Assembly: GCA_030699685.1 (NCBI GenBank)
Contig: JAUYLJ010000027.1
Span: 12,601-76,600 of the forward strand
Direction: 5' to 3'
From: a bacterium
GTDB lineage: Bacteria; Patescibacteriota; Patescibacteriia; JAHIZJ01
Length of the DNA: 64,000 bases
Below are positions 12,156 to 44,283 of the stretch, piece by piece. Every line of letters starts with the position of its first letter. The first letter of the stretch is position 1. The notes below the pieces were generated by a model. The model was not told the origin of the DNA, made no database searches, and saw nothing but the letters and a program-made list of their open reading frames with translations. The translations under genes were made by a program, and so were the position numbers.

Positions 12156-12240
12156 ACATGTTTTTTCACGCCGGGATAACCCTTGCTTTTTGATAATAGA
12201 AATGGTATCGAGAGAAGGAATCATGGTTCATTTCTTCCGA

Positions 12241-12312
12241 GCGGGTGTCGTATAATGGTTATTATGGCTCCCTTCCAAGGAGCAGAAGCCGGTTCGATTC
12301 CGGTCACCCGCT
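12241..12312 (+). tRNA. tRNA-Gly(TCC)
   Basis: hand-folded cloverleaf: acceptor GCGGGTG/CACCCGC, anticodon loop CTTCCAA, T-loop TTCGATT. Confidence 0.8.
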
Positions 12313-12320
12313 CAGAGGGA

Positions 12321-13331
12321 ATGAAATACATTAATGTTTTGGCCGGAAAATATTCAACAATGAAAATACGGATTTTCGAAATACGTACCCTCCTAGAATC
12401 CAAGTTGAAAAAACTCGGATTCACGGCCAGTGAGTCAAAAATCATCGCGGACGAATACATTCAAGGAGAGCTCAAAGGAAAATCTTCTCACGGGATTTTT
12501 ACGTTTATTCGCGTTTATGAAAAAATTAAACGCCGCCAGCGAGGCCGCTACAAAATCATAATCAACAAAGCCGCTTACGCTTATATTGAGGGCAATAAAG
12601 ATATTGGACAAATTGTGGCCGACAAGGCAATCCGCTTAGCGATCAGCAAAGCGAAGAAAAGAGGTGTAGCGATGGTCGGCGGTGGAAATATTCAGGCATT
12701 TCTCCGGCCAGCCACCTGGGCCGAGATCGCTGCCAGGGAAAACATGGTCGCGTTGTGTTTTAATTTTGGCGGCGGACCACTTATGGCTCCAACTGGCGCG
12801 CGGGAAGCTATCCTGTCCACCAATCCAATCGGAATTGGCATCCCATACAAGCCCTATCCTTTCGTTATTGACATGGCCACGTCCAATAGAGCTTTTTATA
12901 ACGTACGCCTGGCTCGGAAATTGAACACAACAATCCCTAAAGACTGGGGTATTGACCGATGGGGCAAGCCAACGGCTGACCCGAACAAACTCGTGGCCGT
13001 CTTGCCTTTTGGCGGATACAAAGGCTATGCCCTGGCTCTGGCTCTTGAAATATTGACCGGACCGCTCGTCAAAACCAGAGTGGGCCGACGATCTGATGCC
13101 ATGCGCGGCTTTCTTTTTATTGTTATCGATCCGAAAGTATTCACGACGCGGAAAGAGTTTGACCGTGACATTCGCGCTCTGATTCGAGATGTTAAAACCG
13201 CGAAGAAAATCAAAGGCGTAAAAAATATTCTTATTCCGGGTGAACGAGCGTTCCAAACCGAGCAAGAAAGATTAAAAAGCGGCTTTTTTGACCTGGACGA
13301 ACGCGTTATTAACGAGATTCGTGTATTATAG
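12321..13331 (+). CDS. Ldh_2 family malate/L-lactate/sulfolactate-type dehydrogenase
   Basis: N-terminus ...GELKGKSSHG and overall Ldh_2 architecture; start ATG at 12321 has GAGGGA RBS, chosen over ORF-track start because 12183-12312 overlaps the tRNA. Confidence 0.7.
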   Translation: MKYINVLAGKYSTMKIRIFEIRTLLESKLKKLGFTASESKIIADEYIQGELKGKSSHGIFTFIRVYEKIKRRQRGRYKIIINKAAYAYIEGNKDIGQIVADKAIRLAISKAKKRGVAMVGGGNIQAFLRPATWAEIAARENMVALCFNFGGGPLMAPTGAREAILSTNPIGIGIPYKPYPFVIDMATSNRAFYNVRLARKLNTTIPKDWGIDRWGKPTADPNKLVAVLPFGGYKGYALALALEILTGPLVKTRVGRRSDAMRGFLFIVIDPKVFTTRKEFDRDIRALIRDVKTAKKIKGVKNILIPGERAFQTEQERLKSGFFDLDERVINEIRVL

Positions 13332-14896: not shown

Positions 14897-17359
14897 ATGA
14901 GCACCACACGCAATCAGAGTGAAACCACAGACAAGACTGATTTCGCCACCGCTTGGGATAAGGGCAGTGTTATTATTCCGGAAAAATTTCAAGCTTCGCA
15001 AAATTCGCTAGAGGTGTTTACCCGTCGTTACGCTTCAATCAAAAAGGACGGCACGAAAGAAACCCCCGAGGAAATGTGCCGACGGGTTGCCCACGCTCTG
15101 GCAATCGTGGAAACGGATTATGGCAAAACTCCCGACCAGATCAAACAAATTGAAGTGGAGTTTTATGGAATTTTGATGCGGAAAGAGTTTACACCGGCCG
15201 GCCGGACGCTCACCAACGCCGGAACGGAATTTCCCATTGTAGCCAACTGCATCGTTCTCAACATCCAGGATTCGATGGACAGTATTTTCACCACGCTGCG
15301 GGACGCGTCGTTGCTTCAGCAGGCCGGATCGGGACTCGGCTTTCCACTTCATCTGATGCGGCCGGCCGGATCCAATACCAAACGATCGCAGGGTCAAGCC
15401 TCCGGTCCCATTTCCTTTCTGAAAGTATACAACCAGTCTTTCGGCGTCATCAAACAGCAGAATCGCCATGGCGCTAATATGGCCGTCATGAGAGTTGATC
15501 ATCCCGACATTCTCGAATTTATCCATTGCAAAGAAAAAGAAGGCGAGATTAAGAATTTCAACATCTCAGTTGGGCTAACCAATGAATTCATGCGCGCCGT
15601 GGAACGAAACGACGGCGAACCGTGGTATTGCCAATGGAAAGACGAAAAGATAAAGCCTCGCCACATCACCCGCGACGGAGGAGAAACCGCCATCCAGGTC
15701 ACAGAGGTAACGATGACGGCCCGCGAGCTGTTTGACGAAATCATCGACGCCGCCTGGGGCAACGGAGAACCCGGCTGCGTCTTCCTGGACGCCGTCAATG
15801 ACACGAACCCCATCCCCGGACTGGGACGAATCGAGGCCTGCAACCCCTGTGGCGAGCAATTCCTGCACGACAGCGACGTGTGCAATCTTGGTTCAATCAA
15901 TCTGGAGCAATTTGTCACTGAAGAAAAGCGGATTGATACGGCCCGCTTGAAAGAAGTAACGCGCGCGTCAGTGCGCATGCTTGACAATGTCATCGATATC
16001 TCCAATTTTCCAGCCGAACGCGTCAACACGACCGCCCGAAACAACCGACGGGTTGGACTGGGCGTGATGGGATTTGCCGATATGCTGTATCAGATGGGTG
16101 TCGGCTACAACACCGAGGAAGGTCGGCAGGCCGCCGAGACCGCCATGGGGACGATTCAGGAAGCGGCCCATCAAATGTCCGAAGAACTGGCGGAGGAAAA
16201 AGGAGTTTTCAAAAATTACGATAAGAGCGTTTTCATCCAGCAAGGCCGCAAAATGCGTAACGCCGCGCTGACTACCGTCGCGCCGACCGGAACCATCTCC
16301 ATGCTCCTCGACGTGTCAGGCGGAGTTGAACCGTATTTCGCCCTGGCCTACCACTACAAAGGAATTCTGGGAGGCAATGTCCAACTTCACTACGTCAACA
16401 AGCATCTGGAAAAAGCGCTGAAAGACCGGGGACTGTACTCCGAAAAACTCATGGAACGGATCATTAAATCCGGCACGCTCCAGGACATTGATGAAGTTCC
16501 TGAGGATATAAAACAGACCTTCGTCGTAGCTATGGACATTTCGGCCGAAGACCATATCAAGATGCAAGCCGCTTTCCAGCGCCATGTCGATAACTCCATC
16601 TCTAAGACAATCAACTTCCCGAATTCAGCGACCAAACAGGACGTGATGGACGGCTACCTCCTGGCCTGGCGCTTGGGATGCAAAGGTTCGACTGTCTATC
16701 GCGATGGTTCACGCGAATTCCAAATACTGAATCTGAACGACGAAAAAAAGAAGAAAGCCGCTGAAGAGACGGACACTCAGACTAGCGATGAAGCAAGCCG
16801 GCCGACTATTAGCCCGCGCTCCCGCCCCACCGCGCTCCAGGGGGTCACGTACAAAATCAATACCGCTTATGGCAACCTTTACATCACCATCAACGATGAC
16901 GAGGCTGGGCTGCCATTTGAGGTCTTTGCCACGATCGGAAAAACCGGCGGCTTTTTCGCCGCGCAATCCGAAGCAATTTGCCGGCTCATCTCCTTATCGC
17001 TTCGCTCAGGAATCGACATTGCCGAAATGATAGAGCAGTTGAAAGGAATCCGCGGCCCCGATCCAAGCTGGTATGACGGCGGCCAAATTCATTCCCTTGG
17101 CGACGCCATCGCCCAGGTGCTCGAAAAGCACATCAAACGAGATCAGCTCCAGCTCGGCTTGACTAAAGATGAAAATAATAGCCCAGGAACAACTACCGCT
17201 CAGACCGAAACCGTGACTAAAATGGAAGTGAAGACTTCGAAGCGAATTTCCATTTCTGACACCGGTTACGCTCCAGTTTGTCCGGATTGCCACGGTAACC
17301 TCACCTTTGCCGAAGGCTGCATGAGCTGCAAAGCCTGCGGTTTCTCAAAGTGCGGGTAG
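14897..17359 (+). CDS. nrdJ: adenosylcobalamin-dependent ribonucleotide reductase, class II
   Basis: 820 aa; active-site CNPCGEQ region; C-terminal Cys-rich zinc ribbon CPDCHG...CMSCKACG typical of class II RNR. Confidence 0.85.
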   Translation: MSTTRNQSETTDKTDFATAWDKGSVIIPEKFQASQNSLEVFTRRYASIKKDGTKETPEEMCRRVAHALAIVETDYGKTPDQIKQIEVEFYGILMRKEFTPAGRTLTNAGTEFPIVANCIVLNIQDSMDSIFTTLRDASLLQQAGSGLGFPLHLMRPAGSNTKRSQGQASGPISFLKVYNQSFGVIKQQNRHGANMAVMRVDHPDILEFIHCKEKEGEIKNFNISVGLTNEFMRAVERNDGEPWYCQWKDEKIKPRHITRDGGETAIQVTEVTMTARELFDEIIDAAWGNGEPGCVFLDAVNDTNPIPGLGRIEACNPCGEQFLHDSDVCNLGSINLEQFVTEEKRIDTARLKEVTRASVRMLDNVIDISNFPAERVNTTARNNRRVGLGVMGFADMLYQMGVGYNTEEGRQAAETAMGTIQEAAHQMSEELAEEKGVFKNYDKSVFIQQGRKMRNAALTTVAPTGTISMLLDVSGGVEPYFALAYHYKGILGGNVQLHYVNKHLEKALKDRGLYSEKLMERIIKSGTLQDIDEVPEDIKQTFVVAMDISAEDHIKMQAAFQRHVDNSISKTINFPNSATKQDVMDGYLLAWRLGCKGSTVYRDGSREFQILNLNDEKKKKAAEETDTQTSDEASRPTISPRSRPTALQGVTYKINTAYGNLYITINDDEAGLPFEVFATIGKTGGFFAAQSEAICRLISLSLRSGIDIAEMIEQLKGIRGPDPSWYDGGQIHSLGDAIAQVLEKHIKRDQLQLGLTKDENNSPGTTTAQTETVTKMEVKTSKRISISDTGYAPVCPDCHGNLTFAEGCMSCKACGFSKCG

Positions 17360-23626: not shown

Positions 23627-24223
23627 TCAGGCGTGCGGGGGTGAATGGGTATTGCCATTGCGTGACCGCCAATTTGGCCCTAAACACTGTTCGATGACCG
23701 AGACCGGTACGTGCAGACCGGTTCGGACTACCCGGGGCAACCGGACAAGGCAGAATTGATCGCTTTCATGATCTGGTTCTATTTCCACGAATTCGGGGAA
23801 GCGTCGCAACAAAACGCTGATTGCGCGATTCTTCAATTGGAATGCTTGCATGCTTTCGTTGCCGCTTTGCCCGTCCGCCCACTCGAAACTGTGGGCCAGC
23901 TTATTCGCCAACGAGGCATAGTCAAAGATGTCGGTCGGCCTCCAATCCATACTGGGCAGATGTGCGGCTAAAGCAGACAAGAGCAAGGAAAGTTCGTCTA
24001 CAGGCAAACGGGAACCTGCCCTATCCAGGCATACCCACAAGAGATAGCGCCCGTTCTGCGTCTGAACTAGACGATGATGACCGCGATAGCGCCTCACCAA
24101 GGACTCGTAGTCGCCTACGGTCAAGCTGTGGCTTGGCTTATGAAAGAACTCCTGCACCACTGTACTAGAACCTGTATGTTTGCGATGGCGGCGTTGCTTT
24201 CTCGCACGTCGACTCATACACAA
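23627..24223 (-). CDS. hypothetical protein, GC-rich, Arg-rich N-terminus
   Basis: composition differs from neighbours; no recognised motif. Confidence 0.35.
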   Translation of the reverse strand: MCMSRRARKQRRHRKHTGSSTVVQEFFHKPSHSLTVGDYESLVRRYRGHHRLVQTQNGRYLLWVCLDRAGSRLPVDELSLLLSALAAHLPSMDWRPTDIFDYASLANKLAHSFEWADGQSGNESMQAFQLKNRAISVLLRRFPEFVEIEPDHESDQFCLVRLPRVVRTGLHVPVSVIEQCLGPNWRSRNGNTHSPPHA

Positions 24224-24343
24224 GCTCCTTTCAATCCTGTAAGCCTAGACGTCAATTCAGGAGCGGAGAAACGAACAATACCAAACAATCCCTTGTCGCG
24301 TCAAGGTAAGCCTATACTAGTTTAAATATGGTTATTCTACTCC

Positions 24344-24420
24344 TGGTGGGCGGCACAAGACTCGAACTTGTGACCTCCACAATGTCAATGTGGCGCTCTA
24401 ACCAGCTGAGCTAGCCGCCC
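24344..24420 (-). tRNA. tRNA-Val(GAC) with CCA
   Basis: GGGCGGCTAGCTCAGCTGGTTAGAGC...loop TTGACAT. Confidence 0.85.
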
Positions 24421-24545
24421 GCCAGAAGTAAAACTTACACCACTCTAGCAACTTTTTTACCTTTTTTCAAGGATGCAAAATCTGATAAGGCCACAGTTCT
24501 AGATCAATAGAACCTCGACATATCAACTCCACTTTTTTGTATCTA

Positions 24546-24621
24546 TGGTGGGTGCGGATGGATTTGAACCATCGACCGCAGCCTTATAAGGGCTGTGCTC
24601 TAACCACTGAGCTACGCACCC
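24546..24621 (-). tRNA. tRNA-Ile(TAT) (UAU anticodon) with CCA
   Basis: GGGTGCGTAGCTCAGTGGTTAGAGCACAGCCCTTATAAGGCTG...; anticodon loop CTTATAA. Confidence 0.7.
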
Positions 24622-24639
24622 ACCATAGATACACATATA

Positions 24640-24760
24640 ACAGAGTTGATATAAGCGTGGCGCTCTAACCACTGAGCTATGCACCCACCGCAAACAATCA
24701 AAAGGTGTCGATATAAGGGCTGTGCTCTAACCACTGAGTTTCGAGGTCCGGCCCTGCTAC
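24640..24760 (-). repeat. two degenerate tRNA 5'-half copies (through anticodon loop ...CTTATA) directly adjacent to tRNA-Ile(TAT)
   Basis: minus-strand GGTGGGTGCATAGCTCAGTGGTTAGAGCGCCACGCTTATA and ...ACTCAGTGGTTAGAGCACAGCCCTTATA, both lacking 3' halves. Confidence 0.5.
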
Positions 24761-31041: not shown

Positions 31042-31116
31042 TGGAGCGGGAGACGGGATTCGCACCCGCGACCTCTTCCTTGGCAAGGAAGCGTTCTACT
31101 ACTGAACTACTCCCGC
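31042..31116 (-). tRNA. tRNA-Gly(GCC)
   Basis: GCGGGAGTAGTTCAGTAGTAGAAC...loop TTGCCAA...GGTGCGAATCC...CTCCA. Confidence 0.85.
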
Positions 31117-31149: not shown

Positions 31150-31218
31150 CTGGCAGCGTTTCTACTAGTTGCGACCTCCCCGCCCGGGCGGGGCGTTCTA
31201 CCGCTGAACTACGCCCGC
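31150..31218 (-). pseudogene. degenerate tRNA-Gly-like pseudogene (intact 5' half, GC palindrome CCCCGCCCGGGCGGGG in anticodon arm, degenerate T-arm)
   Basis: 5' half GCGGGCGTAGTTCAGCGGTAGAAC matches tRNA-Gly; no pairing T-stem or acceptor 3' strand. Confidence 0.45.
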
Positions 31219-31321
31219 ATGTGTCTGTAGACTACTGCCCGGTAGAACCAAGTCCTGCGCCAGAGACACGAGGCTTTACCGGAAACCCCTGAATAAGAGT
31301 TTTGTCCCGCAGCCCACACTT

Positions 31322-31398
31322 TGGAGGCCAGGAGGGGATTTGAACCCCTGAATAAGGGTTTTGCAGACCCTCGCCTTAGACCACTTGGCTACCTGGCC
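31322..31398 (-). tRNA. tRNA-Cys(GCA) with CCA
   Basis: GGCCAGGTAGCCAAGTGG...loop CTGCAAA...GGTTCAAATCC. Confidence 0.85.
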
Positions 31399-43212: not shown

Positions 43213-43644
43213 ATGCCGCCATCAAATAAAAATTTCCACGTCGGATTGAAAGCGATTATTCGTCGTAATTCTGAATTTCTGGGTGTCAAAAACACCCGCA
43301 ACCGCTACTGGACCCTGCCCGGCGGCCGGATCGAGGAACGCGACCTGGATTTGCCGGTAATCGAATGTCTACGCCGGGAGTTGCTCGAGGAGCTTGGTTT
43401 ACGAGCGAAAATTGAAATAGGTAAGGTATTTGACATGATTAAATACAAGACCTCTCCTGACGACCATTCGCCGAATCAAAAAATATTTCTGATATGCTAT
43501 GATTGTCAGTTCGACGGGGGTGAAATTGTGCTCAAAAAAGACGAGCTGGAACAATTTGAATGGCTCGATAAAGAAAACTACAAGCAATATGATTTCGGCG
43601 TACTGCAGAAAACAATTGATCGCTTCGTCGCGGAAAAACTCTAA
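43213..43644 (+). CDS. NUDIX hydrolase
   Basis: GGRIEERDLDLPVIECLRRELLEELGL Nudix box. Confidence 0.8.
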   Translation: MPPSNKNFHVGLKAIIRRNSEFLGVKNTRNRYWTLPGGRIEERDLDLPVIECLRRELLEELGLRAKIEIGKVFDMIKYKTSPDDHSPNQKIFLICYDCQFDGGEIVLKKDELEQFEWLDKENYKQYDFGVLQKTIDRFVAEKL

Positions 43645-43685
43645 CGCTTGCGTATTGTGAAAATAAGAGGCAGTATGAAAAACGT

Positions 43686-43720
43686 GCCGGGGTGGTGGAA
43701 TGGTAGACACAAGGGACTTA
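43686..43720 (+). pseudogene. tRNA-Leu(TAA) 5' part (acceptor, D-arm, anticodon stem through CTTA) with no 3' part
   Basis: identical to 43804-43838 of the intact copy. Confidence 0.7.
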
Positions 43721-43770
43721 CCCCGAACTACGATGAGTTCGGGGTACCCGGTACCCAACGCGGTTCCGGG
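43721..43770 (+). repeat. 50-nt GC-rich double-hairpin element, copy 1
   Basis: CCCCGAAC-TACGATGA-GTTCGGGG plus CCCGGTAC-CCAACGCG-GTTCCGGG. Confidence 0.8.
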
Positions 43771-43803
43771 TAAAATCCTTCAGCACATCACAACAAAAAG
43801 AAT

Positions 43804-43889
43804 GCCGGGGTGGTGGAATGGTAGACACAAGGGACTTAAAATCCCTCGACCACAAGGTCGTGCGAGTTCGAATCTCGCCCCCGGCACCA
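43804..43889 (+). tRNA. tRNA-Leu(TAA), intact, with CCA
   Basis: acceptor GCCGGGG/CCCCGGC, anticodon loop CTTAAAA, long variable arm, T-loop TTCGAAT. Confidence 0.85.
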
Positions 43890-43914: not shown

Positions 43915-44196
43915 GTGTGTATGTACTATGTGTATGTGCTTCGGGGCGTAACACAAGATCGTTACTACATCGGTCGTACCGAGAATCTTCAAAAGAGAAT
44001 CTCGCAACACAAAAAAGGGGAGGTTTGGACAAGCCGTCGACTTGGTGTTTGGCAATTAATGTTTTATGAAGCGTTTCTTGCCAAAGCCGATGCCATTCGC
44101 CGAGAGCGATACCTGAAAACAAGCAAAGGAAGATCTACACTGAATCTCATGCTTAGAGAAAGCTTGCGTCTCGTGGCTTACCCCGAACTACGATGA
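43915..44196 (+). CDS. small GIY-YIG nuclease family protein (YhbQ/UPF0213-like)
   Basis: YYVYVLRG...[20 protein letters not shown]...RRERYLK; stop codon lies inside hairpin copy 2. Confidence 0.7.
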
Positions 44197-44230
44197 GTTC
44201 GGGGTACCCGGTACCCAACGCGGTACCGGG
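44181..44230 (+). repeat. 50-nt GC-rich double-hairpin element, copy 2 (1 mismatch vs copy 1)
   Basis: preceded by CTTA, followed by TAAAATCC, as for copy 1. Confidence 0.8.
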
Positions 44231-44283
44231 TAAAATCCCTCGACCACAAGGTCGTGCGAGTTCGAATCTCGCCCCCGGCACCA
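44231..44283 (+). pseudogene. tRNA-Leu(TAA) 3' part (53 nt, identical to 43837-43889) with no 5' part
   Basis: seen in sequence. Confidence 0.7.

Follow-up and report, generated by a model that had tools for sequence, protein, structure and literature searches.

Fragments of transfer RNA (tRNA) genes left by mobile DNA (PMC9897764; PMC3293823) and GIY-YIG nucleases tied to phage tRNA genes are both already known. SegB of phages T4 and T6 is a free-standing GIY-YIG homing endonuclease encoded in a tRNA gene cluster (PMC2330249; PMC13096335). It recognizes a DNA motif of the tRNA T-loop, and its cuts, which fall within a tRNA gene or at its end, have 2-nucleotide (nt) 3' overhangs (PMC2330249; PMC13096335). 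It spreads with neighboring tRNA genes, is able to cause tandem amplification of a segment that contains tRNAs, and has homologues that are statistically co-located with phage tRNAs (PMC2330249; PMC13096335). Here we describe a 64-kb stretch of a Patescibacteria metagenome-assembled genome (the window), in which a tRNA-Ile(UAU) gene is accompanied by two partial copies of itself, and a tRNA-Leu(UAA) gene lies inside the two halves of another together with a small GIY-YIG nuclease gene. The Ile fragments are probably non-functional shells, nuclease-less relics of homing-type tRNA-replacement cassettes that were reshuffled by unequal recombination. All coordinates refer to the window unless an L-number is given; L-numbers (L004, L014 and so on) denote loci of relatives or metagenome matches.

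Nine tRNA genes were called in the window by ARAGORN. Those of the Ile/Val locus and the associated fragments are as follows.

24546-24621, minus strand: intact tRNA-Ile(UAU), the innermost live copy (ARAGORN; Rfam, 77.4 bits)
24344-24420, minus strand: intact tRNA-Val(GAC) (ARAGORN; Rfam, 68.9 bits)
24689 to 24650, minus strand: fragment 1, 3 nt of leader and tRNA-Ile positions 1-37 (-3 to 37), from alignment to the live gene
24738 to 24712, minus strand: fragment 2, tRNA-Ile positions 11-37, 27/27 identical to the live gene

A sequence-only reading of this DNA had reported two partial tRNA copies ending in CTTATA, and the alignment confirms them. Both terminate at anticodon-loop position 37, and the pattern GGTTAGAGC-N6-CTTATA occurs exactly three times in the 64 kb, against 0.06 expected. 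The same reading had placed the fragments 3' of the gene, which is wrong. Because tRNA-Ile is on the minus strand, they lie upstream (5') of it, in the same orientation. The spacers separating the copies are just 25-28 nt, and the head-to-tail spacing is 62-65 nt. Neither ARAGORN nor Rfam folded or scored either fragment as a complete tRNA. A matching second 3' half was not found in the window, where the tRNA-Ile 3'-half sequence is present once only, and Tandem Repeats Finder (TRF) detected no tandem array in the Ile region.

The identity between the copies is a mosaic. Fragment 2 matches the live gene at every position and abuts unalignable sequence; the segment upstream of it (24739-24751) is unrelated to the tRNA. 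Fragment 1 is nearly identical to the live gene in the acceptor and D arms (24/25 across positions 1-25), and four of its five differences fall within the anticodon-stem strand, CCACG, which is unlike the live gene at four of five positions. This strand is the same as in the tRNA-Ile of L017, and fragment 1 is 28/30 identical to the tRNA-Ile of L004. These matches argue for replacement by another allele, not for a local duplicate that decayed. Over 5.4 kb, fragments included, the region is matched at 99.98% identity by an independent Logan assembly of run SRR13727534. We considered an assembly artefact and rejected it, as the architecture recurs in independent assemblies from different studies and samples and the junction sequences are unique. 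The junction pattern GGTTAGAGC-N6-CTTATATCRAC has no match in viral contigs. tRNA-Ile(UAU) was found in nine related loci and is a trait of the clade; it is documented as an alternative decoder of AUA in bacteria without tilS (PMC3575796).

The sequences that follow the two fragments have inverted complements on the other side of the live gene, and the leaders of both tRNAs are complementary to their trailers.

24643-24652, minus strand: ATATCAACTC, the junction that covers and follows the end of fragment 1, in a perfect 10-nt inverted repeat
24704-24711, minus strand: TCGACACC, the junction after fragment 2, whose TCGACA is complementary to TGTCGA at 24515-24520
24513-24529, minus strand: GAGTTGATATGTCGAGG, downstream of tRNA-Ile, holding the inverted complements of both junctions back to back
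24538-24633, minus strand: complementary leader and trailer of tRNA-Ile, which lengthen the acceptor stem into a 19-base-pair (bp) perfect helix, CCA included
24335-24433, minus strand: complementary leader and trailer of tRNA-Val, 20 nt, 85%

The partner of ATATCAACTC is GAGTTGATAT (24520-24529), located just past the tRNA-Ile trailer. The complement of the fragment 2 junction, TGTCGA, directly abuts it. The resulting order is nested, with shell 2 outermost, shell 1 inside it and then the live gene, after which come the closing sequences, first that of shell 1 and then that of shell 2. Between the junction complements of GAGTTGATATGTCGAGG one would expect 3' shells, which are missing, and the 3' halves of both Ile shells have been deleted. 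The two junctions have TC(A/G)AC in common, and that of fragment 2, TCGACACC, resembles the junction GCGATGACC of L015.

Folded as a single strand, the region forms a cloverleaf on nested helices (-105.8 kcal/mol, z = -6.0). In several tRNA genes the leader and trailer pair for 10-15 bp past the acceptor stem, and the encoded CCA is buried. Helices of this length were seen only in the genomes with nested fragments (the window, L014, L015, L017 and L019), among which the leader and trailer sequences vary. The tRNA-Ile and tRNA-Val genes of more distant relatives are without them, and those of L004, L009 and L012 are without fragments as well. The pairing may represent either a conserved helix or terminal inverted repeats. 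A further tRNA gene of the window, at 12229-12330, also has a complementary leader and trailer.

The locus was compared with those of relatives. The nearest genomes have 52-53% identity to the window in the membrane protein adjoining the tRNA pair. The common gene order is S1, FtsH, membrane protein, tRNA-Ile, tRNA-Val, an open reading frame (ORF) in some cases, CCA enzyme, RluD and L19. These loci (L014, L015, L017 and L019) all contain intact tRNA-Ile and tRNA-Val genes with 5' pieces upstream, 3' pieces downstream or both, and the fragments are often broken up by GC-rich hairpins. In L015, an older tRNA-Val is interrupted exactly in its anticodon loop by an intact tRNA-Val with a 13-bp inverted repeat. 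The intact tRNA-Val of L017 has a copy of its positions 1-15 on one side and a 100% identical copy of its positions 56-78 on the other. The number, extent and sequence of the fragments are unlike in every genome, even between L014 and L015. The flanks of these two are 96-99% identical, yet tRNA-Ile and tRNA-Val both differ. The live tRNA-Ile of L015 remains in L014 as positions 1-23 only, followed by a different live allele. Of the live tRNA-Val of L015, L014 retains positions 1-17 and 23-77, on either side of another live tRNA-Val. The differences at the site consist of tRNA cassettes and hairpins only; cargo genes are not among them. This comparison is direct evidence of recent tRNA replacement, and it also shows that a live gene recombined out of register with an older shell.

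The tRNA cassettes of relatives are bounded by GC-rich inverted repeats with the shared ends CCCGCC(T)... and ...GGCGGGCAG.

L017, 7025-7046 and 7204-7221: GC-rich inverted repeat of a cassette
L014, 7515-7535 and 7672-7692: GC-rich inverted repeat of a cassette
L019, 7075-7092 and 7171-7187: GC-rich inverted repeat of a cassette
L011, 1677-1696 and 1772-1790: GC-rich inverted repeat of a cassette

Short solo hairpins of the cassette-end type (for example TCCGCC-AAA-GGCGGA) are scattered through dead tRNA fragments. They look as if they were empty versions of the cassettes.

A more complete version of the nested arrangement is found elsewhere in the window, at tRNA-Leu(UAA).

43686-43720, plus strand: outer 5' half of tRNA-Leu(UAA), positions 1-35, 100% identical to the inner gene
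43719-43772, plus strand: GC-rich hairpin pair in the anticodon, CTTA-hairpin-TA-hairpin-TA-AAATCC, with a second copy at 44179-44232
43804-43889, plus strand: intact inner tRNA-Leu(UAA) (ARAGORN)
43921-44196, plus strand: GIY-YIG nuclease gene, 91 amino acids (91-93), catalytic domain only (PF01541, E 7e-15)
44231-44283, plus strand: outer 3' half of tRNA-Leu(UAA), positions 34-86, 100% identical to the inner gene

A 510-nt insert, which contains the live tRNA-Leu and the GIY-YIG ORF, interrupts the anticodon of the outer tRNA-Leu, whose halves overlap by the dinucleotide TA. From 5' to 3' the order is 5' half, hairpin pair, intact tRNA, GIY-YIG gene, hairpin pair and 3' half. The identical 52-nt hairpin pair stands at both junctions, set in CTTA and AAATCC. 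It belongs to a family of paired hairpins with about 74 distinct copies in L020-L099 (for example L047:869-923 and L044:4522-4866), which in L044 form a five-copy tandem array. Each hairpin has a stem of about 10 bp and a 6-nt loop (ACGTAG/ATGTAA in the first, CAACGT/TTACAT in the second); covariation is seen in the stems, and one hairpin of a pair mirrors the other. The pairs are located at the CCA end, the anticodon loop or the D loop of tRNA genes, accompany GIY-YIG genes and are bordered by duplicated TA, CA or GCCA. The 2-nt duplications (TA, CA) beside inserted pairs fit 2-nt staggered cuts and are the sole hint, an indirect one, of site-specific cleavage by the enzyme. Rfam has no family for the fragments or the hairpin pairs.

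The nuclease is closely associated with tRNA genes. A metagenome scan with the 91-amino-acid protein returned 80 loci at 43-59% identity, and a tRNA gene is located within 300 bp of the nuclease gene in 49 of them, on the same strand in every case (49/49). The adjacent tRNAs represent 13 anticodons, although tRNA-Ser(GGA) and tRNA-Ser(GCU) make up 36 of the 49. Partial tRNA copies, often 100% identical, are present at many nuclease loci, typically in the order 5' partial copy, GIY-YIG gene, intact tRNA. In L011, also from Patescibacteria, tRNA-Lys shows the pattern of nuclease and partial copy, and the same locus contains a tRNA-Arg cassette bounded by inverted repeats. No NCBIfam entry matches the nuclease. 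Tandem tRNA-Ser copies in L056:371-990 and L047:1006-1165 have a GA-rich insertion of about 40-45 nt in the T-loop (GGGTTCG-GCGACCGAAGGGAGGCGGAG...GAGCAC-ATCC), and the rest of these copies is 100% identical to the intact gene. This insertion is a kind of disruption different from the hairpins.

The orthologous tRNA-Leu(UAA) site was traced in relatives through the adjacent GAF-domain protein (65-68% identity). There the site has the GAF gene on one side and a SpoU methylase gene, then Nudix, on the other. It is empty in L104, which has a plain gene with neither fragment nor nuclease. It is a relic in L100, where a 5' fragment with hairpins is present and the nuclease is absent. It is occupied in L102, L103 and L105, with fragments, hairpin pairs, an intact tRNA and a GIY-YIG ORF that is 48-56% identical to that of the window. 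The Leu site is thus polymorphic for presence and absence, with an intact empty target in L104 and occupied sites in the window, L102, L103 and L105. Three such states at a single orthologous site would be expected of a homing-type element. The Ile locus of the window matches the relic state. Compared with L100, L102, L104 and L105, the window has no SpoU gene at this site, and Nudix abuts the outer tRNA-Leu half (43644-43686).

Two other tRNA genes of the window are also accompanied by partial copies.

31322-31398, minus strand: intact tRNA-Cys, bracketed by an inverted repeat
31284-31304, minus strand: tRNA-Cys 3' fragment, positions 36-56, downstream of the intact gene
31042-31116, minus strand: intact tRNA-Gly(GCC), with a 5' fragment upstream
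31193-31218, minus strand: tRNA-Gly(GCC) 5' fragment, positions 1-26, its anticodon arm swapped for the GC hairpin CCCGCCCGGGCGGGG

The nested anatomy therefore recurs at several tRNAs and in several genomes, the nuclease is tightly linked to tRNA genes, and alleles were replaced between two near-identical genomes, L014 and L015. We propose that a cassette would consist of a complete tRNA with its leader and trailer as inverted repeats, sometimes with a small GIY-YIG gene and a GC-rich hairpin pair. It would insert into the loop-coding DNA of a resident copy of the same tRNA, at Ile into anticodon-loop position 37. The old tRNA gene would be broken by the insertion, and the cell would survive on the working copy provided by the cassette. 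By analogy with phage SegB, we infer a homing process in which naive tRNA genes are cut by the nuclease and the cassette is copied in through repair. Repeated insertion would create a Russian-doll arrangement in which the innermost copy alone is alive. The nuclease gene could be lost later, and either new cassettes or unequal recombination of the live gene with older shells could add, remove or mosaic the fragments. The tRNA-Leu(UAA) locus would represent the intact occupied stage, and the Ile locus a relic stage that has lost the nuclease gene and the 3' shells. The Ile fragments probably do nothing now beyond lengthening the pre-tRNA leader.

Several observations weigh against this proposal. 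The inverted repeats at Ile are short (10 and 6 nt) and A/T-rich, whereas the cassette ends of relatives are GC-rich (CCCGCC...GGCGGG), and the Ile locus of the window has no 3' shells. A tblastn search at the Ile locus found neither a nuclease gene nor a recognizable remnant; because of this, the GIY-YIG link there is drawn by analogy with the other loci. A tRNA-Ile site empty in exact synteny was not found, and plain genes were seen only in the more distant L004, L009 and L012. The nuclease itself has no fused DNA-binding domain, its GIY-YIG domain spanning residues 3-76 of the 93-amino-acid form. Its best solved relative in the PDB is an uncharacterised single-domain UPF0213 protein, BH0048, and tblastn with the nuclease against 50,697 phage records returned no match. 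In addition, the inner intact tRNA would keep any target site, which leaves the escape of the host from self-cleavage unexplained.

Other explanations of the Ile fragments were weighed against the cassette model. The sequence-only reading had attributed them to serial integration and excision of integrase-type elements (a prophage or island) at the tRNA-Ile anticodon loop, leaving attachment (att) copies behind. The anticodon loop is reportedly a known class of integrase crossover site, described by Williams in 2002. Prokaryotes commonly contain tRNA fragments that stem from integrated elements (PMC9897764), and the Ile locus is variable between close relatives. That reading holds insofar as the locus contains debris of repeated mobile-DNA hits in the anticodon loop and varies between L014 and L015. 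The mechanism it invoked is not supported. An integrase-type element predicts 3' parts downstream, cargo and an integrase gene, none of which is present: the fragments are 5' parts upstream, cargo is absent from spacers of 25-28 nt, and Pfam scans found no integrase, recombinase or transposase domain in about 50 ORFs of the window. Moreover, the junctions are nested inverted repeats, not direct att repeats, and the neighboring ORF is conserved and syntenic. Integration of this type is largely refuted and is, in our estimate, very improbable. A purely local tandem duplication of a unit of about 64 nt (leader and 5' half) by slippage or unequal crossing-over, followed by decay, would fit the copies being head-to-tail at 62-65 nt, and exactly one intact copy at the 3' end, which a single breakpoint inside the gene would leave. 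The TC(A/G)AC present in both junctions looks as if one junction had been copied, and L014 versus L015 shows out-of-register recombination of a live gene with a fragment. However, fragment 1 has the stem of another allele, with 4/5 differences in that strand, and TRF detects no array. Duplication also fails to account for the inverted complements that lie downstream of the gene, for the 3' fragments seen downstream of intact genes (L017, L015, L105 and tRNA-Cys and tRNA-Leu of the window) and for the association with GIY-YIG genes. Unequal recombination belongs to the best explanation but is not sufficient as the origin, and duplication by itself is unlikely.

The fragments and inverted repeats might instead be a functional part of the pre-tRNA, serving as RNase III-type processing helices or as 5'-half mimics that regulate maturation. 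The stability of the predicted fold, in which the tRNA is capped on nested helices, is consistent with such a role. So are the leader/trailer helices, which are kept with different sequences in five genomes at Ile and Val alike, and the resemblance of TCGACACC, the junction after fragment 2, to GCGATGACC of L015. Some cassettes, such as that of tRNA-Val in L015, have no room for their own promoter, and the outer shell must therefore be transcribed. Against this, no two genomes, L014 and L015 included, agree in how many fragments they have, in their extent or in their sequence; the fragments of relatives are full of unrelated GC hairpin insertions; and in more distant relatives tRNA-Ile is a plain gene that lacks both helices and fragments. 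Covariation, for its part, cannot tell RNA helices from terminal inverted repeats at the DNA level. We regard a function of this kind as quite unlikely. The break at 37/38 is also the canonical position of archaeal and eukaryotic tRNA introns, which raises the idea of split or intron-containing genes whose 5' halves are spliced in trans or in cis to the 3' half, as in some Archaea. In the split tRNAs of Nanoarchaeum, the sequence after the 5' half is the complement of a region elsewhere, and the same applies to each 5' half at the Ile locus. Even so, the window contains no partner 3' half, fragment 2 has no 5' strands of the acceptor and D stems, and all copies share the anticodon of the intact gene, so that nothing would be gained by splicing. 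To our knowledge, bacteria have no splicing endonuclease, which also counts against this idea. Patescibacteria do have tRNA introns at 35/36 (PMC13011429), but Rfam detected no group I intron reaching the gathering score anywhere in the window. Splicing of split halves is scarcely credible here.

The genes flanking the Ile/Val pair encode the membrane protein, FtsH, the CCA-adding enzyme and RluD. The ORF beside tRNA-Val was annotated as follows.

23627-24217 (24223), minus strand: gene for a conserved lineage-specific protein of 196 amino acids with no assigned function, with its own promoter-like site

This ORF had been described as a compositionally distinct, GC-rich orphan with an Arg-rich N-terminus. 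The Arg-rich start is borne out. Its composition is not distinct: GC is 54.3% against 49.7% for the window, and GC at third codon positions is 59% against 58% for FtsH, with a similar value in the membrane-protein gene next door. Nor is it an orphan. The corresponding place in L014 and L015, with tRNA-Val on one side and the CCA-adding enzyme on the other, is taken by a 183-amino-acid ORF with 30% identity (E 3e-21). About nine further representatives of the family were identified by exhaustive HMMER search. A word-index homology search had returned only the ORF itself, and the homologues surfaced by direct comparison and HMMER; NCBIfam has no match. The NCBI annotation contains only a 126-amino-acid form (P0001), and the homologue alignment supports the long form of about 196 amino acids with the Arg-rich start. 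The ORF does not count as island cargo, because it is kept in synteny and its homologues elsewhere are not beside tRNAs; it is an ordinary gene, conserved and lineage-specific, and not tRNA debris either. We also considered it as a part of the cassette and dropped the idea, as the homologue neighborhoods in L107 and L108 have no tRNAs nearby. Elsewhere in the window, the barrel domain model of a ribonucleotide reductase ORF (14897-17359, plus strand) matches two separate stretches, and the protein carries a TSCPD domain. An insertion such as an intein is possible.

Our literature search found no description of nested tRNA-in-tRNA genes, of a bacterial tRNA-embedded, catalytic-only GIY-YIG family or of the hairpin pairs. 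Searches for GIY-YIG nucleases and tRNA in the candidate phyla radiation (CPR)/Patescibacteria and for lysidine in Patescibacteria returned nothing relevant, and a recent survey of Patescibacteria tRNA introns does not mention nested tRNAs, a tRNA-embedded GIY-YIG family or hairpin pairs. We tentatively suggest, at somewhat less than even confidence, that Patescibacteria may harbor an undescribed class of selfish element. Its components would be a minimal GIY-YIG gene, for the catalytic domain only, and a GC-rich hairpin pair with two-fold symmetry. Insertion into tRNA genes, either at the CCA end or at loop-coding positions, would duplicate 2 nt, and the element would carry a spare copy of the tRNA that it destroys. 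Successive invasions would give nested tRNA-in-tRNA genes, rapid allele turnover and horizontal exchange. If this is true, selfish cassettes that bring a substitute repeatedly break and replace the essential single-copy tRNA genes of the tiny Patescibacteria genomes, a route of tRNA gene turnover and horizontal exchange undescribed for cellular genomes. It would explain fragment-littered tRNA annotation, mosaic-looking tRNA alleles and metagenome assemblies that break at tRNA loci. It would also carry the SegB paradigm over to bacteria, where the enzyme is much smaller and the hairpin pair is a new DNA element. The Ile fragments would be relics and not att sites, and the neighboring ORF is ordinary; the interest of the locus lies in the process that it reveals.

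As in SegB, the GIY-YIG gene is found among co-oriented tRNA genes. Unlike SegB, the window nuclease belongs to a cellular Patescibacteria host, consists of 91 amino acids with the catalytic domain only and has no match in the 50,697 phage records. In SegB and I-TevI the nuclease is fused to a sequence-specific DNA-binding domain, which the window nuclease does not have. tRNAs nested in their own halves and symmetric hairpin pairs at the junctions, as seen here, are not described for SegB, and the Ile locus retains no nuclease gene. The att borders of islands, prophages, archaeal plasmids and viruses resemble the Ile locus in having a partial dead tRNA beside an intact gene as a by-product of mobile DNA, and their breakpoint can fall in the anticodon loop (PMC9897764). 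However, they are normally 3' parts, located downstream across kilobases of cargo that includes an integrase, whereas the Ile fragments are 5' parts, located upstream and 25-28 nt apart, with nested inverted repeats and no integrase. Another likeness in arrangement, among the disrupted tRNA genes of Archaea, is the tRNA-Thr of Caldiarchaeum, where a 5' fragment of one allele is found upstream of a different intact allele; this was attributed to a mobile element, and there is heterogeneity at the population level (PMC3293823). There, a 1.8-kb recombinase-encoding element separates the fragment from the gene, and the intact gene contains spliceable introns. The window system is bacterial and has no recombinase, and its separating units are tens of nucleotides long. 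Finally, the group I introns that Patescibacteria carry in their tRNA genes come from the same phylum, are also located in the anticodon loop (35/36 there, 35-37 here) and occasionally contain homing endonuclease genes (PMC13011429). The arrangement described here differs from them in having no group I fold, and the broken gene would be rescued not by splicing but by the spare tRNA that the insert carries.

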